From IMG/VR virus record IMGVR_UViG_2671180444_000002: a DNA stretch of 25,038 nucleotides; one strand, 5' to 3'. A model generated the notes under the pieces. The model was given only the letters and a program-made list of their open reading frames with translations, searched no databases and was not told the DNA's origin. The stretch comes from a virus (Duplodnaviria; Heunggongvirae; Uroviricota; Caudoviricetes). The first letter of the stretch is position 1, and each line of letters starts with the position of its first letter. Below, piece by piece: positions 1 through 24,781 of the stretch. The position numbers and the translations under genes were made by a program.

Positions 1-83
1 AGGGACAGCTGATAGAAACAGAAGCCACTGGAGCACCTCAAAAACACCATCATACACTAAATCAGTAAGTTGGCAGCATCACC
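1..83 (-). mobile_element. IS1 terminal end (inverted repeat plus adjacent sequence); the rest of the element lies left of the window
   Basis: Reverse complement of 1-83 reads GGTGATGCTGCCAACTTACTGATTTAGTGTATGATGGTGTTTTTGAGGTGCTCCAGTGGCTTCTGTTTCTATCAGCTGTCCCT, which I recognise as the IS1 end. Match stops at 83. Confidence 0.75.
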
Positions 84-465
84 AGCCTTCTTGAGGCTAC
101 CACCTGTTTTCAGGTGTCATTCAGACGTGATTTGCCCCAGATTGGGAAAGCACGCTTTTTTCTCAGCTATCGTCCTCTTATTTTGCCGTTACATTTCTTT
201 TTGCATTCTAATGATTAATTTACAATAATAATATCGGTAATTATTGAGTAATAATAAATTAATTATTGCAAATGTAATTTAATTCCATCTTCGCGTTATA
301 TTCCAATCTTTAATCTCCGCATGGAACAAGTTGCATGCGTGACTATATTAAGACGACTTATAACCACCAAAACATTTGCTTTGCAAGCAAAAACAGTGAC
401 CATTGACTCTAAGAAAATTCCGATCTATTGTTAGGGTCATCAAAGTTACTTAACAGTATTCCGAA

Positions 466-567
466 ATGAAAATACAAAGCAAGCTAATTGTCTTATTAAA
501 CATTATTATTGCATTTATATTATTTGAGCTTTTAGCTCAAAAATTTGGTTTGAGTACATTATTTTAA
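466..567 (+). CDS. Hypothetical 33-aa hydrophobic peptide (MKIQSKLIVLLNIIIAFILFELLAQKFGLSTLF)
   Basis: ATG-to-TAA ORF in the AT-rich island; lysines at the N-terminus followed by a single predicted transmembrane stretch. No clear Shine-Dalgarno. Below the 60-aa cutoff of the ORF track. Confidence 0.2.
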   Translation: MKIQSKLIVLLNIIIAFILFELLAQKFGLSTLF

Positions 568-715
568 AGCAAGATAAACAATATCGGGCACTCTAGTTTT
601 TATAATTAACAATTAAACGTCCATAAAATGTTATTTACTTTTCTTCGCTATTGTCATATCTTAATATAGTGGCTTACGCCACTCTACTTTCATCACATTT
701 TGTACGTTTATGTAC

Positions 716-746
716 TCGCCATGAAGCTCTTTCATGGCGATTTTTT
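716..746 (+). terminator. Rho-independent terminator (9-10 bp stem, 5-nt loop, T6 tail)
   Basis: TCGCCATGAA-GCTCT-TTCATGGCGA followed by TTTTTT on the plus strand. Confidence 0.5.
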
Positions 747-832
747 ATTCTTAATCCAAGAACATACTCCCTACCTATAGCAAAATCACTTTTTTAACAA
801 AAGAATAACGTATTTAGGTAATCATTACGAAT

Positions 833-1429
833 TTACCCTATAGGTGCTACTGGCCATTCAATATCCGGTGCAGTTGATGTATCAACACGGTTCAGCAACA
901 CCCGATACTTTTTCCAAGCTTCCAGCAACAAGGTTTCTTTCTCCGTTGCGATCTCCAGATCCACAGCATCCTGAAGCGGCGCTATATGCTCACTGGCTAC
1001 CTGCATCAGGCTGTTTTTTGTTTCTTCCGCCTCCCGGATCCGGAACAGTTTTTCTGCTTCCGTATCCTTCACCCAGGCTGTGCCGTTCCACTTCTGAAAC
1101 NNNNNNNNNNNNNNNNNNNNNNNNNNNNNNNNNNNNNNNNNNNNNNNNNNNNNNNNNNNNNNNNNNNNNNNNNNNNNNNNNNNNNNNNNNNNNNNNNNNN
1201 NNNNNNNNNNNNNNNNNNNNNNNNNNNNNNNNNNNNNNNNNNNNNNNNNNNNNNNNNNNNNNNNNNNNNNNNNNNNNNNNNNNNNNNNNNNNNNNNNNNN
1301 NNNNNNNNNNNNNNNNNNNNNNNNNNNNNNNNNNNNNNNNNNNNNNNNNNNNNNNNNNNNNNNNNNNNNNNNNNNNNNNNNNNNNNNNNNTTTTATGGTC
1401 CGTGCTTGTTCACTCATTCTGAATGCCAT
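833..1429 (-). CDS. tfa: Tail fibre assembly protein Tfa; interior hidden by N-run
   Basis: N-terminus [13 protein letters not shown] and C-terminal half ([25 protein letters not shown]...) match lambda Tfa. Start overlaps the stf stop by 1 nt (TAATG). Confidence 0.9.
1101..1390. other. N-run (unsequenced or masked), inside tfa
   Basis: 290 consecutive n. Confidence 1.
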
Positions 1430-4400
1430 TATGCGAGCCTCACAATATAGTTAAATGCGATGTTTTTGACGGTGTTTTCCGCGTTACCAGCAGCGTTAAC
1501 GGTGATGGTGTGTCCATGTGAACCAATCGCAACAGAGTGCGTATGAGCACCAATACCGACAGTATGCGCGTGTGCACCCGCAGATGCTGCTGTGCCGGAC
1601 AGTGAGTGTGTATGGTTTCCTTCTGAAGATGATTTACCTACCCATTGGGAGGTGCCACTGGTTAATGAGCCACTGATACCAACCTGATTAGTCCCGCTAA
1701 CTTGAGTACTCCCTGCCGGAAACATTCCAGTAGGTTGACTCCCGCTATTCGTTCTGGGCCCAGTCTGACTATGTTGGTGGGCCCCAGCTGAACTTGTAGA
1801 GCCGCTCAGACTGTGCGTATGCGCCCCGGTGTTATTCGTGGATTTAGTGCCGTAATCAAACGACGATGTGGTTTTCGTCCCCAAATCCGTACTGGATGCG
1901 CTGGCGCTGTGGGTGTGCGATTTAATGCCATCCTGTTCCTGAGACAATACGGCACGACCACTGGCGGGCTTGCCCTTAATCGTCCAGCCACGCATATCAG
2001 GGATCACGCCTGACGGATAAGCGGCTGCAAGTTTCGGGTAAGCAGATTTGTCAAAAGTCTGCCCCTGCATCAGGGCATAACCAGACGGAACGGTATCTGA
2101 TGGCCACGGGATTGGTGCACCGACTGGATAAAACTCTGCAGGAGGATGAGCCGAGGTGTAAAGCTGCGCCCACGGCGACCAGTTTGCGTCGGTCGTATCC
2201 CGTCGTGAACGAATAAATGCCGGAGCATGAGCACCGCTTGTACCACTCCAGCCGATGAGTAACTCACCTTCGCCAACGGCTGTCATCCCTTTCAGGTGAA
2301 TGATATTTCCATACGCTGTTGGATATCCGTTGTTATACACCTCGTATAACTCAAGACCTGCTGCCCCCTGCGTATTGTCTGTCAGCGCGGCTACCCGACC
2401 TTTTGAAGCCAGATTAACTGATGATACTGCTGTTCCACCTGACGGTAGCGCCCCGATCTCTGATGCCGTTGGCTTATTTCTGGAGTTATAGTCCCTTCGC
2501 CAGCCAGGTGAATAATCTGTTCCGTGATTAATATAGGTAAACTGGGCGTTGGTTGTTCCGCCACCGCTGGATGTGGTCGGAGTGGTAATGCGGATCGTCA
2601 TCGCTGACTTTATCCCCATTACTTCAATGACAGCTCCGGCGAGATGAATATTACCGCAGCCAGTATCAGTAATGATTTTATTATTGCCATAAGACCAGGA
2701 ACCCTTGCACATCCAGTATGGATGGTTAAATGCTCCCTGAGAATCCAGCCACTCGATAAACTGTGCAGTCGTCCAGTTTCCTGTTGTTGTGCTTACTGAC
2801 CCACCGAAGGCACGGCAGGCACCAATATTTTTCGTAAAGGTGTCTTTGCCAGGGATATCCGCACCGTTCTGATCTTTCTGCAGACGTTTCTCAGCATTGT
2901 CATTGGCTGCTTTTACTGCCTTTGGCGTTGCCGCCAGCGTTTCAGACGTGCTGTTGGTCGCGCTGCTTAGCTGGATTATCCCTTTCTGTGCTGTCGTTGC
3001 ATCCTGTGCGGTGTATTTCCCGTTAGCCAGGTCATACGCGGCCTTAACGGCTTTTGGTGTTGCCGCCAGTGACTCGGAAGTGCTGTTAGTCGCACTACTG
3101 AGCTGTACTATCCCCTTTTTCGTCGTGCTCGCATCCTCAAGCGCCACGGCGGATGCAATATCCTCTGCCCGTTTTGCCGCTGTCTCAGCGCGCGTTGCTG
3201 CAGATTCCGCCGTACTTTTGCTCTGAGCTGCTGCCGTCGCACTACCAGCAGCCTCTGTCGCCTTCGTGGATGCCGTCGTGGCGCTGCCCTTCGCTGCTGA
3301 CGCCTGTCTGGTCGCCTCATCTTTTGAAGCAGACGCCGATGATGCCGATGACGCCGCCGAACTGGCGGACGATGCGGCAGCCGTTTTTGAGGATTCTGCA
3401 CGGGTTTCCGACGCTTTCGCGTTCGTTTCGGATGTCTTCGCTGCGGAAGCTGACCTCGCTGCTGCCGTGGCCTGCTCAGTGGCTTCGCCAGCCTTCGTTG
3501 TGGCTGTTGAAGCGGATGATGCGGCGCTTTCTGCCGATTTTCCGGCGGCGGTGGCACTGGCTGAGGCCTGCCCGGCACTTGTTGACGCGGCGCTGGCAGA
3601 CGACGCAGCCGCTGTTTTTGAGCCTGCCGCAGCTGAGGCACTCTGTCCCGCTGCCGTTTCAGAAGACCTGGCGTTCGTCTCGGACGTTTTGGCCGCCTTC
3701 GCAGAATTTGCAGCCGCCGTCGCCGAGGAAGCTGCGCTACTGGCGCTTGATGATGCGTTCGTTTCTGATGATTTTGCCGCCTCTTTTGAAGCCGACGCAT
3801 CCCGGGCTGAGGTGGCAGCTTCTGACGCTTTCGTGGTCGCGGTGGATGCAGAAGTGGCTGCTGATTGTTGTGACGCTGCCGCATTCGTTTCTAACGTTTT
3901 CGCCGCACCGGCACTGGTAGCCGCCGCGCTTTTTGAGGACTCTGCAGCGGCAGCACTTTTTGAGGCTTCAGTGGCCTTTGTTGATGCCGTTCCTGCGCTG
4001 GAAGACGCTGACTGAGCCGACGAAGCGGCCTGTCCGGCTGACGTGCTGGCTGCACGTGCTGAATCTGCAGCATCAGTCGCATGGGTTGCCGCCTCACGGG
4101 CTGATGTGCTGGCATCGCTGGCTGATTTCTTCGCGGCTGCCGTGTTCTGTGCCACCGCGGACGCGTTACGCGCCACCTCTTCCACCATCAGCTCAAAACG
4201 GCGCAGTGCCTCCGGACGGGCATCATCCTCCGTCATGGCACCGAGAAAATCATTCAGCGTACCGGGTCGGGAATCTTCATACACGGTGATGGTCCCGGCA
4301 TGTGACGGCGGGAATCCTTCCACCAACAGAATAACGCTGTACTGACCGTACTCAACGTCCATGCTGTAACGCCCGGCTTCATCCGGATTTTCTGAGGCCA

Positions 4401-4512
4401 GCGTGTTCACCACCACCGTGGTGCTGTTACGTTTTGCTTTCAGCTGGATTGTGCAGTTCTGTACCGGTTTTCCTGTGCCGTCTTTCAGTACACCTGAAAT
4501 CTTTACTGCCAT
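1429..4512 (-). CDS. stf: Side tail fibre protein Stf, long mosaic form (about 1027 aa)
   Basis: N-terminus [31 protein letters not shown] and C-terminus ...[31 protein letters not shown] match lambda Stf. The ORF track begins 6 nt upstream at a GTG; ATG at 4510-4512 gives the lambda-like start. Confidence 0.9.
2900..3130 (-). repeat. Tandem nucleotide repeat inside stf encoding two copies of the phage tail-fibre repeat motif
   Basis: Two near-identical units of about 90 nt encode [29 protein letters not shown] and [29 protein letters not shown]. Coordinates approximate. Confidence 0.6.
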
Positions 4513-4523
4513 ATTCACCCCAC

Positions 4524-4550
4524 AAAAAAGCCCGCCTGAACCGGCGGGCT
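4524..4550 (-). terminator. Rho-independent terminator between lom and stf
   Basis: Minus strand reads AGCCCGCC-GGTTCA-GGCGGGCT followed by TTTTTTG; lies 27 nt after the lom stop and 12 nt before the stf start. Confidence 0.6.
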
Positions 4551-4576
4551 GTCATAACACTGTGTTACCTGGCTAA

Positions 4577-4671
4577 TCAGAATTTATAACCGACACCCAC
4601 GATGAAACCGTCAGTGCGCCAGAGACGTGTTGCTGTGGCGACCGTCATCACTTCCGGTCAGCACATCGTGC
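4577..4671 (-). CDS. lom: Outer-membrane beta-barrel protein Lom (Ail/OmpX family), 3' end only; rest hidden in N-run
   Basis: Minus-strand translation ends ...WRTDGFIVGVGYKF*, matching the lambda Lom C-terminus and the aromatic-x-aromatic ending typical of beta-barrels. Stop codon at 4577-4579. Confidence 0.7.
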
Positions 4672-4884
4672 NNNNNNNNNNNNNNNNNNNNNNNNNNNNN
4701 NNNNNNNNNNNNNNNNNNNNNNNNNNNNNNNNNNNNNNNNNNNNNNNNNNNNNNNNNNNNNNNNNNNNNNNNNNNNNNNNNNNNNNNNNNNNNNNNNNNN
4801 NNNNNNNNNNNNNNNNNNNNNNNNNNNNNNNNNNNNNNNNNNNNNNNNNNNNNNNNNNNNNNNNNNNNNNNNNNNNNNNNNNNN
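4672..4884. other. N-run covering the J stop, the J-lom spacer and most of lom
   Basis: 213 consecutive n. Confidence 1.
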
Positions 4885-7800
4885 TACTGATGCCGGAAGC
4901 CGCTTTTTTGGTCACAATCACCGTACAGTCGGTGATATTGCCTGCCCCCTGATTGCCTTTCTGGAAAATCTTAAACTCCAGAGTGACGCTACCACCACCA
5001 CTAGGCATATCAATAACTGCACTGTAACTACCGGGAATGGCACCTTTAGTTTCTCTGGATGCGATTAATACGCCGTTTTTGCGAACTTCAAAACCATAAC
5101 CCGTGTATCGCGTGCCTCCTGGGTTATTTCCGCTCCCCGGATCGTCATACGCTATACCGTTAAAAATAATGGGCGGAATAATAATCTGGCGGTCAAAGTT
5201 ATGATCATCGCTTATGGTGACTGTAACCGTCCCGTTTGGTGTTTCCGTGTTACCCCACGTACCAGCCTGTTTCGGAAATGATTTGGATACAGCTTTAACG
5301 AAGTCACCTCTGACCTGAGTCGCCTCCAGCATGCCCTTAATCGTACAGTTTTCATTTACCGTGACATTGTTGAGCGTCCCGGCGTTCGCATTCACACTGC
5401 CACTGATATCCGCATTTTTAGCGGTCAGCTTTCCGTCCGGAGTCAGGGAAAATGCCGATGGATTTCCACCGCTGGTAATGGTGGGGGCCGTCAGGCGTTT
5501 CAGGAACACGTCGTTCATGAATATCTGATCGCCCTGACCAACAAACATCGGTTTTGTGTTGCCATTCGCAGGATTAACCATCGCAATCCTGTCCGCCGCC
5601 AGCAGCACCTGACTCTGCATGCCGTCAGGGGTGTTCTCAATACCGGCACCAATACCCGCGATATAAAGGCGTCCGTCCTGCATCTGCTGCAGCTTCACAG
5701 CCCACATGCTGTTCAGGTTATTATTTGTATCAACCTGAACCTTCTGTATCTGCTGAATTGCCGCACTCTGGTCTTCCAGTTTCTTATTGACGGTCTGCGT
5801 GATTTCATTGCTGACATCCGTAATGGACGTCCTGATTTCAGCCAGGTCAGGCGCAAGCTGACCGTTATCAATCTGCGTCCACAGCTCCTGAGCCAGATGG
5901 GTTTTCCCTATCTCGCCTTTGAAAAAATCCAGATAACCGGATGCATCATCACTCGGCTGACCAACAGCCTCCACGAATGCCGATTTGCCAACGGTGTTCA
6001 CACTGCGGATATAAAAGTAATAATCATGGCCCGGTTTGATATTGATACTGGCGGCTATCCAGTACAGCGCCGTGCCAAGATAGCGTGCTGTGGTTTCAAC
6101 CTGCCTGATATCCGCAATCCGCTTTTCCGAGAACCAGAACTCAAACTGTACCGTCGGATCATAAACCGCAAGATGCGGCGTGGCGGTTATCTGAAAATAG
6201 CCCGGCGTCAGCTCAATCCGCGACAGCGCTGCCGGTGCGGCAATCCGGAACGATACCGACGCCGGATCGCCCTGCTGCCCCCACGCATTTACTGCCCGGA
6301 CTGTCAGCCTGTAGTTCCCCAGCGCCAGTTGTGTGAAGCGGTAAGTGGTTTCCGTCGTCCGGGCCGTGCTGACCAGCCGCTCACTGCCGTCATCCGCTGT
6401 TACGGTCAGACGGAGCAGGAAGCTCACGCCCTTCACCACCTTCGGCGTGTCCCAGCGCGCCAGCACCTGATATTCCCCGCTGTCTGCGGTGACTTCGGCA
6501 GTCAGGTGCTGCACCGCTGGCGGCGTGACACCATTCACCGTGCCGCTCTGGTCGCCGTCAAAGTGCGCCCCGTTATCCACGATGGCTTCTTTTTCCGGCA
6601 CATGCTGCACGGCGGTGATGGCATACGTGCCGTCGTCGTTCTCACGGATACTCACGCAGCGGAACAATCGCTGGTGCAGCGTCGGCAGCTTCAGCCCCCA
6701 CACGCTGTATTCAGCAACACCGTCAGGAACACGGCTCACTTTTACCTTCACGCCGTCGGTGACGGACTGGACCTCCACGCTGACCGGATTCCCCTGCCCG
6801 TCAACCAGGCTTATCAGCGTGGTGCCGGAGGATGGCAGCGTGATTTCACGGTCGAGCGTCAGCGTCCGGGTCTGGCTGTTCACCGCCAGCACGCGCCCGC
6901 CGGTGCGGATACCGGCATAGTCATCATCGCAGATTTCAATGACATCGCCCGGTACATGACGAAGCCCTTCAGCACCCACGCTGAAATCCACGGTCTGCGT
7001 CTCCAGCAGTTCCGTTTTAATCAGCCACAGCCCGGCGCGGTGTGCCTGCCCCCGGCTGGTACAGCCAAAGGCATCCATCTTCGTGACGTTACGACCGTAA
7101 CGGACAATGGCCTGCGTATCCTCCACAAGCTCTGTCGCCGTCTCCCAGCCGTTATCCGGGTCAATCCAGTTCACCTCAACGGCATTATGGCGGTCTTTCA
7201 GGGCGCTGAAACTGTAGCGGAACGGCGCGCCATCATCCGGCATCACCACATTACTGCGGTTATAGGCCCACACCTTATCCGACTGTCGGTCCTGCACGAA
7301 CGTCAGCGTCTGCCCGTTCCATACCGGCATACAGCGCATCGCCGAGCAGAAATCACTGAGCACATCCCACGCCTTGCGCTGTGTGGTCAGCCAGGCATTA
7401 CAGGTGATGCGCGGCTCCGTGCTGCCAAAGCCGTCCGGCACCGACTGGTCACAGTACTGGCCGATGACATACAGCGCCCATTTATCCACATCTGCCGCAC
7501 CAAGACGTTTCCCCATGCCATAGCGCGGATGGGTCAGCATATCCCACAGACACCAGGCCATGTTGTTGCTGTATGCCGGTTTTAACGTTCCGTCCCAGAT
7601 ACCGCTGTATTGCCGCGTCTGCGGATTATAGTTCGACGGCACCTGCAGAATGCGCCCGCGAAGATGATAATTACGGCTCACCTGCTGGCTGCCGAACTGC
7701 TCCGAATCCACCTGTACGCCGACCAGTGCCGTGTTCGGGTAGCACTGTTTCACATCGATGATTTCGGTGTATGACGACCAGAGCGTTTTGTTCTGCAGCT

Positions 7801-8376
7801 GGTCTGTGGTGCTGTCCGGCGTCATTCTGCGCATCCGGATATTAAACGGGCGCGGCGGCAGGTTATCCACCACCACCGAGGCCAGATACTGCGAGGTGGT
7901 TTTGCCCTTAATGGTGATGTCTTTTTCCGTCACCCAGCCACCGTTACGCTGTATCTGAACCAGCAGGCGAACTTCAGACGGATTCCTGTCTCCCTTTGAG
8001 GTGGTTNNNNNNNNNNNNNNNNNNNNNNNNNNNNNNNNNNNNNNNNNNNNNNNNNNNNNNNNNNNNNNNNNNNNNNNNNNNNNNNNNNNNNNNNNNNNNN
8101 NNNNNNNNNNNNNNNNNNNNNNNNNNNNNNNNNNNNNNNNNNNNNNNNNNNNNNNNNNNNNNNNNNNNNNNNNNNNNNNNNNNNNNNNNNNNNNNNNNNN
8201 NNNNNNNNNNNNNNNNNNNNNNNNNNNNNNNNNNNNNNNNNNNNNNNNNNNNNNNNATCCACCGGACCTTCAACCGGCCCTTCGCTGATGGCATCGATCA
8301 CACTCAGCAGCTGCGTGGACTTCAGGTTGTCCTTCGCTTCGCGCGGGGTATGCCCCTTACTGCTGCCTTTACCCAT
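4885..8376 (-). CDS. J: Tail tip / host specificity protein J (central fibre); two N-runs interrupt it and the 3' end is inside the 4672-4884 gap
   Basis: N-terminus [34 protein letters not shown] at 8376; body ([20 protein letters not shown]... through ...[13 protein letters not shown]) matches lambda J. ORF-track entries 7930-8376 and 4658-7933 are the same gene split by a gap whose length is not a multiple of 3. Confidence 0.9.
8007..8256. other. N-run inside the J N-terminal region
   Basis: 250 consecutive n; reading frame before and after differs by one position. Confidence 1.
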
Positions 8377-8436
8377 TCGTCATGCTCCATAAACGATAAA
8401 ACCGCCCGGAGGCGATTTCACATAAAACATTTTGCA

Positions 8437-9108
8437 TCAGCGACCAATCACCACAACCTGACCACCGTCCCCTTCGTCTGCCGTGCTGATCTCCTGAGAT
8501 ACCACACGTGACCCCACGCGCATTTCACCATACAGAACAGGCATAACATTGCCCTGGGCAACCATGTTATCCAGTGAGGAGAAATAGGTGTTCTGCTTAC
8601 CGTTATCCGTTGTCTGTGTGCGGGGAGTTCTGGCTTTCGGTGCCAGCATCTGAGCCACACCGCCGAGCACCATACTGGCACCGAGAGAAAACAGAATGCC
8701 GGTCATACCACCGGCACCAATGGCAGCCCCCCATGCTGCAAGGGTGGCTCCGGCGGTAAAGAATGATCCGGCAATGGCGGCTGCTCCCAGGACAATCTGG
8801 AATACACCACCTGACTTGGCCCCGGCGACTCTGGGAACAATATGAATCACAGCGCCGTCAGGCAGAGCCTCATGTAACTGTGCCGTTAATCCGGACGTGC
8901 TAACATCCTGCCCGGCAATACGCACCTGATACCAGCCGTCGCTCAGCTTCTGACGAAACGCAGGGAGCTGTGTGGCCATCGCCCGGATGGCTTCGGCACC
9001 CGTTTTCACACGAAGGTCGATGCGGCGGCCAAATCGTTGCAAATCCCCGTAAAGGCAGATGCGTGCCATGCCCGGTGACGCCAGAGGGAGTGTGTGCGTC
9101 GCTGCCAT
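8437..9108 (-). CDS. I: Tail tip assembly protein I
   Basis: 223 aa, MAATHTLPLASPGMARICLYGDLQRFGRR..., same length as lambda I with the ubiquitin-like N-terminus; 60-nt spacer to J as in lambda. Confidence 0.9.
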   Translation of the reverse strand: MAATHTLPLASPGMARICLYGDLQRFGRRIDLRVKTGAEAIRAMATQLPAFRQKLSDGWYQVRIAGQDVSTSGLTAQLHEALPDGAVIHIVPRVAGAKSGGVFQIVLGAAAIAGSFFTAGATLAAWGAAIGAGGMTGILFSLGASMVLGGVAQMLAPKARTPRTQTTDNGKQNTYFSSLDNMVAQGNVMPVLYGEMRVGSRVVSQEISTADEGDGGQVVVIGR

Positions 9109-9749
9109 TTGTCGGTATACCTCTCTCGTTTGCTCAGTTGTTCAGGAATATGGTGCAGCAGCTCGCCGTCACCACAGTAAATGGCGGCATGATTCGGCAC
9201 CGATGAACCAAAACAGCACAGCAGCACATCGCCCGGCTGCGCCGCTGACAACGGCACCTGATACAGCCCTGTGGCCTCCAGATTATCCAGATAGAGATTC
9301 TGACCGTGACGCCACCAGTCATCCTCACGATGAAAATCCGGCATCTCAATCCCCGCCAGATGGTAAGCATCCCGGAACAGCGTGTAACAGTCCGTCACCC
9401 CGTGCTCAAAGCGCCGCCCGGTAAGATGTGGCACACAGCGGAACTTGTGAATCGCCCCCCGGCAGACCAGCCACCACGGCAAATCACTCTGCACCTGCAG
9501 CCGCCGGTCGGCCTCACTCAGCCAGGGCAGACCACCGGGGTGGCTGTGGACCAGTGCCACAATCTCACCCTGCATCTCTGCCTGCAGCCAGTCTTCCGGC
9601 GACATACGGAAATACGCCTCCGGCTCACCGGAGATATTCACGCAGGGGAAATATCTTTCCCCCTCCGGCGTTCTTACCACGAAGCCGCACGACTCCGCTG
9701 GAGCACATCGCCGGGCGTGCGCCAGAATCGCTGATTCTGTCTCTGTCAT
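9006..9749 (-). CDS. K: Tail tip assembly protein K (JAMM/MPN plus NlpC/P60 domains)
   Basis: MTETESAILAHARRCAPAESCGFVV...; JAMM motif HSHPGGLPWLSEAD; NlpC/P60 Cys (GVTDCYTLF) and His (PNHAAIY). Overlaps I by 103 nt as in lambda. A shorter 199-aa form would start at the internal Met at 9605. Confidence 0.85.
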   Translation of the reverse strand: MTETESAILAHARRCAPAESCGFVVRTPEGERYFPCVNISGEPEAYFRMSPEDWLQAEMQGEIVALVHSHPGGLPWLSEADRRLQVQSDLPWWLVCRGAIHKFRCVPHLTGRRFEHGVTDCYTLFRDAYHLAGIEMPDFHREDDWWRHGQNLYLDNLEATGLYQVPLSAAQPGDVLLCCFGSSVPNHAAIYCGDGELLHHIPEQLSKRERYTDKWQRRTHSLWRHRAWHASAFTGICNDLAAASTFV

Positions 9750-9754
9750 GGGAT

Positions 9755-10453
9755 TTACTGCGAAAGTTTGTTAATGGAAAGGAAGCCGCCAAAGTTGCCG
9801 ACGTTATTGCGAAACTTACAGCCACTCAGGCATTTGCTGCATTTATCCTTCGTGATGTCGGACGTTGGCTGGTCATATTCATCCGCGACCGCCGGACCGT
9901 GATAACCGCACTCATCGCCGCGATAGGTCCAGGTGCAGGTGTTGGCCAGCATGATACGTCCCGGAAAAACAGCGCCATCTGTTTCCGTCGGCGTGGACAG
10001 TACAAAAGAGGCACTCACCGCGCTCAGTTCGCTGCACTGCTCAATGCGCCAGCGGCTGATCACCTCCTGCTCCGGATCGGCGTCACTGTTTCCGTTGACG
10101 AAGTTCACCGCATCCAGAAAACGGGCGTAAACCTTACGCCGGACCACCGTTCCGCCGACCAGACTCTGTAGATCTTCCGCCATCCCGGTGACCATACCGT
10201 ACAGGTTAGAAACCATCAGCGTGGGGCGCGTACTGGTGCCTTTGCCATTCAGTTCAAAACCACTCCCCTGAATGGGATACGGCTGATACTGTCGCCCCTG
10301 CCAGGTGACCGGCTCACCTTTTTCGTTCTGCTCATTACAGAAAAAATAACGTTCTCCACCGACCTCTGTCAGATCGATTTCCCAGAGCACCACGCTGGCC
10401 GACTGCTCCGCACGGGTGCATTCATTCAGTGTTTCCTGCCGGATATCCTGCAT
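9755..10453 (-). CDS. L: Minor tail protein L
   Basis: 232 aa, MQDIRQETLNECTRAEQSASVVLWEIDLTEVGGERYFFCNEQNEKGEPVTWQGRQYQPYPIQGSGFE..., matches lambda L; C-terminal Cys cluster (CSKCLSGCKF). Confidence 0.95.
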   Translation of the reverse strand: MQDIRQETLNECTRAEQSASVVLWEIDLTEVGGERYFFCNEQNEKGEPVTWQGRQYQPYPIQGSGFELNGKGTSTRPTLMVSNLYGMVTGMAEDLQSLVGGTVVRRKVYARFLDAVNFVNGNSDADPEQEVISRWRIEQCSELSAVSASFVLSTPTETDGAVFPGRIMLANTCTWTYRGDECGYHGPAVADEYDQPTSDITKDKCSKCLSGCKFRNNVGNFGGFLSINKLSQ

Positions 10454-10782
10454 CAGTTCACCACCTGTTCAAACTCTGCGCTGAACTCAACACGCAGCAT
10501 ACTGACCCGCGACGACCATTTTGCGCAGGTCACCTTTATCTGCCGCCACTCATAAGGCGGCGTCCACAGAAAGGCTTTCCAGCCCCCGTGCTCTTCCAGA
10601 AACGACTCCAGTACCATGGCCTCCTCACGGGGGACAGAAAGCGTCACGCTGTACGTTTTCAGGTTGGCATTCAGCCCGGCAGGCGCTCGCTGGGAATAGC
10701 CATCACCAAAGCGCACCTTTCTTACAGAAGGGGCCGAAGCCACATCCATACCGGGTTTCACTTTCCAGCGGAAGGTTTTCAT
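10453..10782 (-). CDS. M: Minor tail protein M
   Basis: 109 aa, MKTFRWKVKPGMDVASAPSVRKVRFGDGYSQRAPAGLNANLKTYSV..., matches lambda M; 1-nt overlap with L and 4-nt overlap with H. Confidence 0.95.
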   Translation of the reverse strand: MKTFRWKVKPGMDVASAPSVRKVRFGDGYSQRAPAGLNANLKTYSVTLSVPREEAMVLESFLEEHGGWKAFLWTPPYEWRQIKVTCAKWSSRVSMLRVEFSAEFEQVVN

Positions 10783-13340
10783 CGTCCACCTCCGGAGAAC
10801 AGGCCACCATCACGCATCTGTGTCTGAATTTCATCACGGGCACCCTTGCGGGCCATGTCATACACGGCCTTCATCATCTGTGGACCTGGCAGACCATTCG
10901 TACCGTCGTTCTGAATCACCACGTGATTGTTCTGATTAAAATTAATGCCTTCAGCCCGCCGCATCTGCGCCGGACTTCCGGCACCGCCCACATAACCACC
11001 TTCCGCATAGCCGCGCATCAGCCGGTAGAGATTCCCCACGCCAATCCGGCTGGTTGCCTCCTTCGTGAAGACAAATTCACCACGGTGAACAATCCCCGCT
11101 GGCTCATATTTGCCGCCGGTTCCCGTAAATCCCCCGGTTGCAAAATGGAATTTCACCGCAGCGGCCTGAATGGCTGTACCACCTGACGCGGATGCGCCGC
11201 CACCAACAGCCCCGCCAATGGCGCTGCCGATACTCCCGACAATCCCCACCATTGCCTGCTTAAGCAGAATTTCTGTCATCATGGACAGCACGGAGCGGGT
11301 GAAGCTGCGCCAGTTCTGTTCACTGCCGGTCAGCATCGCCGCCATATTCTGTGCAATACCATCAAAGGTCTGCGTGGCTGCACTTTTAACCTGTGACATA
11401 CTGTCCGTGGCGCTCTCTTCCCACTCACTCCAGCCGGACTTCAGGCCTGCCATCCAGCTCCCGCGAAGCTGGTCTTCAGCCGCCCAGGTCTTTTTCTGCT
11501 CTGACATGACGTTATTCAGCGCCAGAGGATTATCGCCATACTGTTCCTTCAGGCGCTGTTCCGTGGCTTCCCGCGCTGCCTGCCGGTCAGTCAGCCCCCG
11601 GTTTTTCGCATCAATGGCTGCCCGTTTTGCCCGTTGCTGCTGTGCGAATTTATCCGCCTGCTGCGCCAGCGCATTCAGGTGCTCCTGATACGTAACCTTG
11701 TCACCAAGTGCAGCCAGCTGGCGTTTGTACTCCAGCGTCTCGTCTTTATGCGCCAGCAGGGATTTCTCCTGTGCGGACAGCTGGCGACGTTGTGCCGCCT
11801 CCTCCAGTACCGCGAACTGACTTTCTGCCTTCCACAAATCCCGGCGCTGCTGGCTGATTTTCTCATTCGCTCCGGCATGCTTCTCCAGCGTCCGGAGTTC
11901 TGCCTGAAGCGTCAGCAGGGCCGCATGAGCACTGTCTTCCTGACGATCGCCCGCATACACCTTCACGCCGGACTGTTTCGGCTTTTTCAGCGTCGCTTCA
12001 TAATCCTTTTTCGCCGCCGCCATCAGCGTGTTGTAATCTGCCTGCAGGATTTTTCCGTCTTTCAGTGCCTTGTTCAGTTCTTCCTGACGGGCGGTATATT
12101 TCTCCAGCGGCGTCTGCAGCCGTTCGTAAGCCTTCTGCGCCTCTTCGGTATATTTCAGCCGTGACGCTTCGGTATCGCTCTGCTGCTGCGCATTTTTGTC
12201 CTGTTGACGCTGTTGATCTACCCTCTTTTGGGCTGCATCCCGCTCCAGGCGTTTTTTTTCACGATCATCCCAGTAACGCGCCCGTGCTTCATCGTTAACG
12301 AAATAATCATCCTTGCGCAGATTCCAGATGTCGTCTGCTTTCTTAAACGCAGCCTCTGCCTTAATCAGCATCTCCTGCGCGGTATCAGGACGACCAATAT
12401 CCAGCACCGCATCCCACATGGATTTGAATGCACGTGCAGTCCTGTCTGCCCAGGTCTCCAGCGTGCCCATGTTCTCTTTCAGGCGGCGGGTCTGGTCATC
12501 AAACCCTTTCGTTGCGGCCTCGTTCGCCGCCTGCAATGCCCCGGCTTCATCGCCGGAACGCTGCAACTGAGCAACATACGCAATCTGCTCCGCCGTCACG
12601 TTATGGAACTGGCGTGCCATCGCCGTCAGCCCCGACGTCGGGTCTGTGGTCAGCTTCCCGAAGGCTTCAGCGACCTTGTCCACCTCCACGCCGGATGCAT
12701 AGGAGAAACGCGCCACACTCTGGCTGATGGACGCAATCTGAGCCTCACCGCTTACCCCCGCCTTAACCAGTGCGCTGAGTGACTCGCTGGTCTGGTTAAA
12801 CGTCAGCCCTGCCGCCTGCCCGGCTCTGGACAGGACCAGCATACGATCTGCCGTCAGTCCCGCCTGATTACCGGAAAGGACCAGCGTTTTGTTGAAATCG
12901 GACAGGGTTGAGTTGCCCTGATACCAGGCATACGCCAGCGCACCGGTCGCCACCGCCAGCGAGGTGGCCCCCACCATCGGCAGGGTGATCGCGCCGGCAA
13001 GCCCCCTGAACATGGGGATCATCCCGCCGAAGGAGTCCTTAACCTGACCACCCTGTTGCAGCAGGATCAGCCAGGGATTCTGCCCCCCTGCAAGCTGCGT
13101 GGCCACGTCGGTGAACTGTGCAGGCAGCATACGCATGGCGGCTTTATACTGCCCGACGGAAATCCCCGCTTTCTGTGCAGCCAGCGCCTGTCGGCTCAGC
13201 GACTGTTCAACGACTGCCGCTGTTTTTTTCGCATCACTTTCCGTACCGGAAAAATGACGCCTGACTCTGGCCATCTGCTCGTCAAATCTGGCCGCATCCA
13301 GACTCAAATCAACGACCAGATCGCCTACCGGTTCAGCCAT
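10779..13340 (-). CDS. H: Tail tape measure protein H
   Basis: 853 aa, same length as lambda H; MAEPVGDLVVDLSLDAARFDEQMARVRRHF..., long coiled-coil middle and Gly-rich C-terminus. Confidence 0.95.
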   Translation of the reverse strand: MAEPVGDLVVDLSLDAARFDEQMARVRRHFSGTESDAKKTAAVVEQSLSRQALAAQKAGISVGQYKAAMRMLPAQFTDVATQLAGGQNPWLILLQQGGQVKDSFGGMIPMFRGLAGAITLPMVGATSLAVATGALAYAWYQGNSTLSDFNKTLVLSGNQAGLTADRMLVLSRAGQAAGLTFNQTSESLSALVKAGVSGEAQIASISQSVARFSYASGVEVDKVAEAFGKLTTDPTSGLTAMARQFHNVTAEQIAYVAQLQRSGDEAGALQAANEAATKGFDDQTRRLKENMGTLETWADRTARAFKSMWDAVLDIGRPDTAQEMLIKAEAAFKKADDIWNLRKDDYFVNDEARARYWDDREKKRLERDAAQKRVDQQRQQDKNAQQQSDTEASRLKYTEEAQKAYERLQTPLEKYTARQEELNKALKDGKILQADYNTLMAAAKKDYEATLKKPKQSGVKVYAGDRQEDSAHAALLTLQAELRTLEKHAGANEKISQQRRDLWKAESQFAVLEEAAQRRQLSAQEKSLLAHKDETLEYKRQLAALGDKVTYQEHLNALAQQADKFAQQQRAKRAAIDAKNRGLTDRQAAREATEQRLKEQYGDNPLALNNVMSEQKKTWAAEDQLRGSWMAGLKSGWSEWEESATDSMSQVKSAATQTFDGIAQNMAAMLTGSEQNWRSFTRSVLSMMTEILLKQAMVGIVGSIGSAIGGAVGGGASASGGTAIQAAAVKFHFATGGFTGTGGKYEPAGIVHRGEFVFTKEATSRIGVGNLYRLMRGYAEGGYVGGAGSPAQMRRAEGINFNQNNHVVIQNDGTNGLPGPQMMKAVYDMARKGARDEIQTQMRDGGLFSGGGR

Positions 13341-13767
13341 ACCGGACTCCTCCTGCGATCCCTTCTGATACTGTCATCAGCATTACGTCATCCTCCGTCA
13401 TGTCCGCCACATCCGGGGAAGCGGGGATAACTTCATTCCCGTCCGGGCCAAAGCGGACACCTCCGGCAAGCCCTGCCGCTTTCTGCATCAGCACATCATC
13501 TTCAGGCTCTTCGTCAGCCTCGCGCCGGTTCAGCAGACTGAAATCCAGCGGATGCATCTCCGGATCGCTGAAAAACAGGCTGAGCACGGTGTACGTCAGC
13601 CCGGAAAAGTGCATATCCAGCAGAACATCATGAAAATAATGGGTACTGTAAAAGCGGTGCCAGTCGGCATACTCCGTGGATGACATCCCGGCAAGCATGG
13701 CGCGCCAGTCGGGTCGCCCCATCTCACGCGCCAGTTTCAGGGCAAAACTCAGCTCACCGTCGAACAC
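13333..13767 (-). CDS. T: T segment of tail assembly chaperone G-T, expressed as a G-T fusion by -1 programmed frameshift
   Basis: 435-nt ORF in the -1 frame overlapping the G 3' end and overlapping the H start by 8 nt, exactly as in lambda; slippery heptamer at the overlap. Confidence 0.85.
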   Translation of the reverse strand: MFDGELSFALKLAREMGRPDWRAMLAGMSSTEYADWHRFYSTHYFHDVLLDMHFSGLTYTVLSLFFSDPEMHPLDFSLLNRREADEEPEDDVLMQKAAGLAGGVRFGPDGNEVIPASPDVADMTEDDVMLMTVSEGIAGGVRYG

Positions 13768-14171
13768 TTTCCCGCAGAAACAGGCTCTGCAGGCCCGGCG
13801 TCCTCTGCCTGTTCAGGAGCATCATTCACCACAAACTCATACATACCGGACAGCCGGTACACCACGTTTTCAGCATGAGAAATTGCCTCTGTGGGCCAGG
13901 TGGTAAGCACTTCCTGCTCAATCTGTTTAACGGCTTCATTCATGGACGGCATCTGCGTCTTCTTCGGATGGTTATGCCACAGGGACATCGCAACCACAAA
14001 AGCGCCGGTTCTGATGGCGTCTTCCACAGTAAACTTCCGGTTGCTGTCTGACTCCGCCTGTTCTGCCTGCCGTTTCATCAGGTCGAGATGCTCAATACGC
14101 TGCAGGGCTGACAGTTCAGAAAGCGTGACGGTCACACCGTTATGTTCAAATGATTCGGTTTTCAGGAACAT
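13749..14171 (-). CDS. G: Tail assembly chaperone G
   Basis: 140 aa, MFLKTESFEHNGVTVTLSELSALQRIEHLDLMKRQAEQAESDSNRKFTVEDAIRTGAFVVAMSLWHNHPKKTQ..., matches lambda G. Confidence 0.95.
   Translation of the reverse strand: MFLKTESFEHNGVTVTLSELSALQRIEHLDLMKRQAEQAESDSNRKFTVEDAIRTGAFVVAMSLWHNHPKKTQMPSMNEAVKQIEQEVLTTWPTEAISHAENVVYRLSGMYEFVVNDAPEQAEDAGPAEPVSAGKCSTVS
13767..13773 (-). promoter_or_regulatory. Programmed -1 ribosomal frameshift slippery heptamer GGGAAAG (G to G-T)
   Basis: Plus strand CTTTCCC at 13767-13773 is GGGAAAG on the minus strand, inside the G/T overlap. Confidence 0.8.
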
Positions 14172-14186
14172 CGCTGACTCTCCGGA

Positions 14187-14927
14187 TTAACTGGCGGTGA
14201 CGTTGATTTCTGCAACCGCAGCAAACTCACCATTACCAGATACGACCGGAATGTTGACCTTGCCTGCAGCAACACCTTTCACGGTGATGGTCATACCACT
14301 GACCGACACGGTGGCTTTTGTTTTATCCGCAGACACCGCACGGAAGCTCTTGTCGGTTGCGCCATCCGGCTGGAATGCCACGGTCAGCGTGGTGCTCTGC
14401 CCTTTCACTACGGAAGCACTGGCGGGTGTCACCGTCATGCCGGTCGTCGCCGTCACCGTGCTGCGATCTTCTGCCATCGACGGACGTCCCACATTGGTGA
14501 CCTTCACCGTGCGGGTAATCACCTCCTTCGCCGTCACCGCCTTACCGATACTGCTGACCCAGCCACGGAACACATCGACCGTGCCGTTCGGGAAGCGGAT
14601 TTTATAGGCACGGGTATCACCTTCATTAAACCACGCCAGCAGCGCCTGCTGCCCCTGCTCTCCGGGCATCCACGCCAGCGTGAAGCTGGTATCTCCGGCA
14701 GATTTCTGCCCCTGCCCGGTCGCAGTCCAGTCTGCATCTTCATCATCGAGATAGCTGTCGTCATAGGACTCAGCGGTCAGTTCGCCGGGCGTCAGGTCTT
14801 TAACTTTTGCCAGACGCGACCAGTCAACGTCTGAAAGCGGGTTCGCATAAGGGTCACCGCTCCCCTTATAAACCCACAGGGTGGTCCCGGCACCTTTCAC
14901 CGGCATTGTAGGATTTGGTACAGGCAT
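14187..14927 (-). CDS. V: Major tail tube protein V (with C-terminal Ig-like domain)
   Basis: [30 protein letters not shown]... matches lambda V; 741 nt as in lambda. The ORF track extends 10 codons upstream ([10 protein letters not shown]); the lambda-like start is the ATG at 14925-14927. Confidence 0.93.
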
Positions 14928-24313: not shown

Positions 24314-24370
24314 AGCAATTTAGATAATCGTGCAGACTACGCCCCCTCATATCACATGGAAGGTACTACA

Positions 24371-24781
24371 ATGGCTCAGGTTGCCATTTTTAAACAAATA
24401 TTCGATAAAGTGCGAAATAATTTAAACTATCACTGGTTTTATTCTGAACTAAAACGTCACAATGTCTCACATTACATTTACTATTTAGCCACAGAGAATA
24501 TTCATCTTGTTCTTGAAAACGATAATACGGTTTTAATAAAAGGACAGGGTAAGGTTGTAAATGTAAGATTTTCAAAAAATAAATGCCTTATAGAAGCCAC
24601 CTTAAAAGGATTCAAATCAGGAGAGTTATCATTTTACGAATACAGGAAAAATCTTGCTACAGCAGGGGTTTTCAGATGGATTACAAATATCCACGAAAAC
24701 AAAAGGTATTACTATACCTTTGATAATTCATTACTCTTTACTGAGAACATACAGAACACTACACAAATATTTCCGCACTAA
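24371..24781 (+). CDS. Hypothetical 136-aa protein, possibly DUF1398 family (YbcV / lambda 'putative envelope protein'-like)
   Basis: AT-rich ORF. Shine-Dalgarno GGAAGG lies 7 nt before the ATG at 24371 ([17 protein letters not shown]...). The ORF track starts 5 codons earlier at 24356. Family assignment is from memory of size and position, not a search. Confidence 0.45.

Follow-up and report, generated by a model that had tools for sequence, protein, structure and literature searches.

An IS1 terminus and an apparent adjacent deletion beside the tail fibre genes of a lambda-like prophage in Shigella sonnei

The window (the whole 25,038-nucleotide stretch of viral DNA analysed here) begins inside an insertion sequence and passes through AT-rich phage DNA into the tail fibre genes. 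The features at its left end are as follows.

1..83, minus strand: left (IRL-proximal) 83 nt of IS1, the remainder of the 768-bp element lying off-window, leftward.
61..83, minus strand: IRL, 23 nt, GGTGATGCTGCCAACTTACTGAT, an exact string and the same as the IRL of K-12 IS1A.
49..76, minus strand: promoter-like site over IRL, CTGCCA-16-TATGAT, directed leftward into insA (consensus scan).
1..28, minus strand: first 9 codons of insA plus 1 nt, MASVSISCP, with the GTG at 28-26 (direct reading).
84..92, no strand: flank adjoining IRL, AGCCTTCTT, with no partner copy at the IRR end, which has CACCCAATT.
84..832, no strand: AT-rich non-essential ('b-region') phage DNA, 749 bp, 27-34% G+C.
833..1429, minus strand: tfa, tail fibre assembly, from the RefSeq annotation of relatives and Pfam Caudo_TAP, with its stop codon at 833-835.

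Window 1-83 is 100% identical to nt 83..1 of K-12 IS1A (NC_000913.3 19796-20563); its reverse complement reads GGTGATGCTGCCAACTTACTGATTTAGTGTATGATGGTGTTTTTGAGGTGCTCCAGTGGCTTCTGTTTCTATCAGCTGTCCCT. An exact match of 83 nt is far beyond chance, and a search of 4,963 complete E. coli genomes returned this IS1 end at 100% identity in approximately 9,300 records. Similarity to IS1 has its boundary between positions 83 and 84, and IS1-free genomes begin aligning at window 84. The start of insA is placed identically in a relative (L001), where the RefSeq IS1 transposase CDS ends at 8028, equivalent to window 28. The structure and regulation of IS1, including insA and insB' with their A6C -1 frameshift, have been described, and its promoter, P_IS1, partly overlaps IRL (PMC12903888). 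The site at 49-76 sits where P_IS1 belongs and is thus a putative promoter, its function being judged from position and consensus. A preliminary description of this DNA had read positions 1-83 as a reverse-oriented IS1 terminus that includes the terminal inverted repeat and stops at 83, and each of these points held. It had also placed the terminus directly flanking the tail fibre end of the prophage; that wording is loose, given the 749 bp that intervene before tfa.

These 749 bp (84-832) align collinearly and without gaps to E. coli NCTC9008, to phage mEp332 and to a serU-site prophage. No RefSeq relative has an annotated gene in the interval, and the small ORFs scanned against PHROGs gave no matches. 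An unannotated hydrophobic ORF of 33 aa at 466-567 on the plus strand (MKIQSKLIVLLNIIIAFILFELLAQKFGLSTLF) resembles NF000537, the small stress-response membrane protein YncL of NCBIfam. The match (E = 1.3e-5) covers profile positions 1-28 of 30 and scores 25 bits, below the curated cut-off of 35. On the same strand, a promoter-like site lies at 403-431, and a terminator-like hairpin at 716-740 is followed by a T-run. Across five prophage and phage contexts, window 400-830 is almost invariant, while 255-400 diverges in a Qin-site prophage; within the ORF itself the sole variation is a synonymous ATT/ATC. Positions 466-567 may hold a phage-borne yncL-like small gene. A second secondary observation concerns 873-1071 on the minus strand, where Rfam IS009 (RF02111) matches at 218 bits against a gathering score of 117. 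Since this match falls wholly within the tfa coding sequence, the family was probably built on tfa DNA of prophages, and a separate RNA gene is unlikely here.

The nearest sequenced lambda-like phages, mEp332, PhiR70_1 and ev099, have in common with the window the gene order J-lom-stf-tfa, followed by AT-rich accessory DNA in the b region, the arm from tfa to attP. Unlike the S. sonnei prophage discussed below, they lack IS1 at this position and retain 741 bp that the latter has lost. A further difference is one of integration site, as the S. sonnei arm abuts intS and the tRNA-Arg gene argW, while E. coli relatives have the bio-side lambda attachment site.

Several properties of the window itself bear on how it may be compared. 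Three runs of N are masks: 1101-1390 in tfa, 4672-4884 in the lom region and 8007-8256 in a tail gene. The first of these is 290 N long where identical S. sonnei genomes have 275 real bases, so ORF lengths read across masks, such as 198 aa for tfa, are artefacts. Compared as a whole with complete E. coli genomes, the window reaches a best identity of 96.7-97.1%, from which it follows that it does not derive from E. coli proper. An exact-pattern scan for the IS1/flank junction returned 0 hits among GTDB species-representative genomes, where S. sonnei evidently has no representative of its own. Draft contigs which share an identical Stf (25,057-25,131 bp) stop at window 87 or 88, and for this reason the window is probably a whole short-read contig ending in the IS1 repeat. 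Multi-copy insertion sequences break short-read assemblies, which probably accounts for a window that starts inside IS1. At the opposite end, a gene for a DUF1398 protein (24356-24781, plus strand) was found in 7,942 assembly-collection blocks, mostly contigs under 2 kb; it is multi-copy prophage sequence, compatible with a right window end that also lies in repeated DNA but uninformative as to the contig end there.

The window itself contains 83 nt of the element, and the sequence to the left of position 1 is read from closed genomes which are identical over the shared part. Exact look-up of Stf (window 1432-4512, minus strand, 1027 aa) identified 3,688 assembly-collection blocks, mostly contigs of 20-50 kb. 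The extent of the element was read in six closed genomes with identical Stf, two of which are the named S. sonnei strains 75/02 (CP019689) and 53G (HE616528) (PMC5447701). The unmasked part of window 1-14227 is 100% identical to CP104423.1 and to CP019689, and 99.6-100% identical to HE616528. In all six genomes a complete 768-bp IS1 lies leftward of window 1. At its far end is IRR, GGTAATGACTCCAACTTATTGAT, which matches IRL at 18 of 23 positions. The junction on the IRR side of the S. sonnei-type element reads ...CCACCCAATT/GGTAATGACTCC, or with a longer left flank ...CATATCATCCACCCAATT/GGTAATGACTCC, and that on the IRL side ...GCATCACC/AGCCTTCTT, or in longer form ...GCAGCATCACC/AGCCTTCTTGAGG, the oblique marking the joint.

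The copy in 75/02 is 766/768 identical to K-12 IS1A, with 2 differing positions. In this strain (locus L016) InsA is open over 91 aa, the A6C site is present at nt 307, and the InsAB' product of the -1 fusion is open over 232 aa; Pfam detects Zn_ribbon_InsA, HTH_Tnp_IS1 and DDE_Tnp_IS1 in the product. Length, IRL, IRR, insA and insB', the frameshift site and the DDE domain identify the element as IS1, and it is already annotated as such in public closed genomes. It shares with K-12 IS1A its 768 bp, the 23-bp repeats, insA, insB', the A6C site and DDE_Tnp_IS1, and judged by its sequence the copy is complete, of the IS1A type and apparently functional. Transcription of both insA and insAB' runs to the left, away from tfa and out of the window. 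The preliminary description had located the body of the element off-window to the left, and had proposed that leftward extension would reveal a full 768-bp IS1 with insA and insB' and, at its other end, the second inverted repeat; the identical closed genomes bear this out, A6C site included.

A further check that it had proposed, for a target-site duplication, was negative in the same closed genomes. No 9-bp duplication borders the IS1 of S. sonnei, in which the IRR flank is CACCCAATT and the IRL flank AGCCTTCTT, and in this the copy is unlike typical IS1 insertions. The target duplication of IS1 is typically 9 bp (8-11 bp) and marks simple insertion; it is not a definition of the element. 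As a control, TACCTAATG stands on both sides of the next IS1 in the same genome, approximately 7 kb distant, as an exact 9-bp duplication. A simple insertion with duplication was rejected as an account of the locus on the grounds that the two flanks differ. Missing target duplications usually result from adjacent deletion or from recombination between insertion sequences (PMC11708052), and we ascribe the absence in S. sonnei to an associated deletion.

The DNA involved in that deletion can be read from genomes which lack the element. Approximately 190 E. coli genomes with window 84-830 have no IS1 at position 84; the IS1-free allele was examined in one of them, NCTC9008 (locus L002). Here 741 bp (5260-6000) lie between the two points which abut IS1 in S. 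sonnei. The phages mEp332, PhiR70_1 and ev099 also have this IS1-free arrangement, each as a single uninterrupted match of 1505 bp at 99.1-99.6% identity, and mEp332 has the segment flanked by the tail assembly gene on one side and a 'transcriptional regulator' on the other. Because it is present in isolated phages, the IS1-free state is the native phage sequence, and that of S. sonnei is IS1 plus a deletion of approximately 741 bp. The segment absent from S. sonnei holds the 3'-terminal 60 nt of the tRNA-Ser gene serU (L002 5829-5888), found by BLAST with a serU query; ARAGORN detected no complete tRNA in the IS1-free segment. It also holds everything upstream of a gene for a 247-aa AraC-family regulator.

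This regulator, annotated in its source just as 'AraC family', contains the Pfam domains HTH_AraC and HTH_18. In S. sonnei, 15 bp separate IRR from the ATG of its gene, a proximity due to deletion of the upstream DNA. The gene (L016 15198-15940 in 75/02) additionally bears a 1-nt deletion, G409, which shifts the frame in all three S. sonnei genomes checked and leaves a pseudogene called as pieces of 167 aa and 58 aa. E. coli relatives and phage mEp332 have an unbroken copy of 247 aa. With its promoter region gone and its frame broken, the AraC-family cargo is dead in S. sonnei.

Further left in S. sonnei are IS3-family remnants, intS, tRNA-Arg(CCT), a formate/nitrite-transporter gene (yfdC in E. 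coli), mlaA and a second IS1. In the arm of NCTC9008, an 84-nt gene-end fragment beyond the serU piece adjoins IS3-family remnants; in S. sonnei and in the E. coli strain ETEC1746 the same position runs on as full-length intS beside tRNA-Arg argW. The serU fragment, the gene-end piece, the IS3 remnants and intS/argW make the 'b region' of these phages look pieced together from remains of other integrated elements.

The IRL junction of the window is also found beyond S. sonnei. In approximately 79 complete E. coli genomes the IRL/flank junction is identical and a full-length IS1 runs on from it without interruption, this figure being the 80 hits at ≥80% coverage less one multi-piece join at another locus. 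Left partners were read in nine of them, and the single IRL junction was found paired with at least six, namely five nested deletions of 550-1559 bp and the chromosomal gene htrE. One of the nine IS1 copies read is 767 bp long and frameshifted. The left junctions are listed below in coordinates of NCTC9008 L002, with the right anchor at 6001.

Left junction at 5450: 550-bp deletion; the AraC-family gene and 206 bp upstream of it are kept; three genomes read, the commonest type.
Left junction at ~5259: 741-bp deletion, the S. sonnei type; Res13 pig E. coli, six strains, one read.
Left junction at 4769: ~1231-bp deletion; AraC-family gene truncated; JKHS016.
Left junction at 4495: ~1505-bp deletion; AraC-family gene removed; ETEC1746.
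Left junction at 4441: ~1559-bp deletion, running into an IS3 remnant; AST198.
Left junction in htrE: a chromosomal fimbrial usher gene, involving a large rearrangement; STEC409.

In STEC409 (L004 4277-5044), the tfa-side IS1 junction is joined to a truncated htrE (Yad fimbria usher) next to pcnB-folK, which would mean a large-scale rearrangement of the chromosome in association with IS1. In 89 genomes IS1 has the commonest left junction, ...CAGCCAATAAG/IS1, in some of them with different right partners; one such alternative right end, at the window-equivalent position 763, corresponds to a deletion of 679 bp toward tfa. Because each junction pairs with several different partners, this IS1 copy has repeatedly anchored deletions and rearrangements in the phage's non-essential arm. 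The preliminary description had suggested that an IS1 here might have truncated, rearranged or mobilised the cargo distal to tfa. Truncation is borne out by the approximately 741 bp missing and rearrangement by the six or more left partners, htrE included, but no evidence of mobilisation was found.

Taken jointly, we consider it very probable that the window starts in the IRL end of a complete IS1, beside which approximately 741 bp have been lost from the non-essential arm of a lambda-like prophage of S. sonnei, the element lying between tfa and the AraC-family gene. As to how the loss came about, IS1 would have inserted at AGCCTTCTT in AT-rich phage DNA, and intramolecular replicative transposition by its transposase would then have produced a one-ended adjacent deletion starting at IRR. 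An event of this type would keep the element and its IRL junction, while the flank and one copy of the duplication would be lost. The same IRL-anchored process may have recurred in E. coli, yielding the nested deletion series. Deletions promoted by IS1 were reportedly first described, by Reif and Saedler in 1975, in the gal region. The arrangements found here resemble such adjacent deletions in several respects. Firstly, IS1 is retained, DNA beside one of its ends is missing relative to the IS1-free allele, and there is no duplication. Secondly, the IRL junction is fixed while the left endpoints vary and are nested, at 5450, ~5259, 4769, 4495 and 4441 (L002). They differ from selected series of IS1 deletions in that natural genomes are compared, and recombination between two IS1 copies yields the same product.

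The order of these events is inferred, since the simple-insertion ancestor was not found. Its hypothetical sequence, AGCCTTCTT-IS1-AGCCTTCTT, did not occur in one piece in any of the 5,426 E. coli genomes searched. The sole match at 100% coverage (H131) was rejected as a three-piece join elsewhere, with IS1B in a cytochrome-b gene beside a serU-site prophage. Both IS1 junctions of the S. sonnei type also occur separately with other partners, which leaves the original insertion point ambiguous.

The same element and the same loss could also have arisen by a RecA-dependent crossover, if a second, directly repeated IS1 had once stood 15 bp upstream of the AraC-family gene; the 741 bp between the two copies and one IS1 would then have been removed together. 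Such recombination is one of the two usual causes of an absent duplication (PMC11708052), and copies were hardly in short supply. S. sonnei carries very many IS1 copies, two of them in the same orientation within 7 kb here, and some carrier E. coli have IS1 in up to 40 or more places. IS1 copies with different left junctions show 4-7 differences, all of them within the 642 nt nearest IRR and none in the 126 nt nearest IRL, a pattern expected of chimeric copies, and the htrE junction of STEC409 is most simply read as an IS1 x IS1 rearrangement. However, five nested endpoints fall within 1.1 kb, and by a crossover each would require two insertions and a recombination event. Genomes in which IS1 occupies just 2-5 places, moreover, include some with the 550-bp type, and none of the genomes searched had an IS1 copy on each side of the segment. 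For these three reasons we lean slightly toward transposase-mediated adjacent deletion as the route, and regard recombination between IS1 copies as a possible but less likely one.

Two further accounts fare considerably worse. The 83 nt could be a truncated relic, or a chimera assembled at a contig end, in a source genome that lacks a complete IS1; 83 nt is all that is visible, and the window probably starts at a contig end. Breaks of short-read contigs at a multi-copy insertion sequence are expected, though, and the junction is followed by a complete 768-bp IS1 in the six closed chromosomes, of which two match the window at 100%, and by a full-length IS1 in the approximately 79 closed E. coli genomes. 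We consider a chimera highly improbable, and a truncated relic was rejected on the basis of the complete copy in identical closed genomes. Least credible of all is a plain insertion of IS1 without loss, with the 550-741 bp of IS1-free genomes gained later: the serU fragment is the kind of sequence able to arrive by recombination, but the IS1 has no target duplication, the extra DNA is bounded precisely by the two points where IS1 joins and is present in three isolated phages and approximately 190 E. coli genomes, and a gain was rejected since the nested left breakpoints cut into or remove the AraC-family gene, which loss alone fits.

Abundant IS1, the formation of pseudogenes and deletions anchored on insertion sequences are well known in Shigella. 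The finding is thus one of known IS1 biology, and involves no new mechanism or element. In the Res13 pig E. coli, the S. sonnei-type junction is accompanied by an intact AraC-family gene; IS1, in the same orientation as that gene, has taken the place of all its native upstream DNA up to 15 bp from the ATG. Readout from IRR, or a hybrid promoter, could there be the sole driver of the prophage regulator; we think this doubtful, but, if true, IS1 would act as an IS-rewired switch of a prophage-borne regulator. The element also explains the position at which the contig, and with it the window, starts. For S. sonnei, the locus offers a textbook case of the IS1-associated decay of prophage accessory DNA. 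The nested deletions built on one IS1 junction in approximately 79 E. coli genomes provide a natural illustration of how insertion sequences erode a prophage arm. This copy of IS1 may be a hot spot at which deletions recur, with nested endpoints that distinguish lineages, and the deletion series could serve as a lineage marker.
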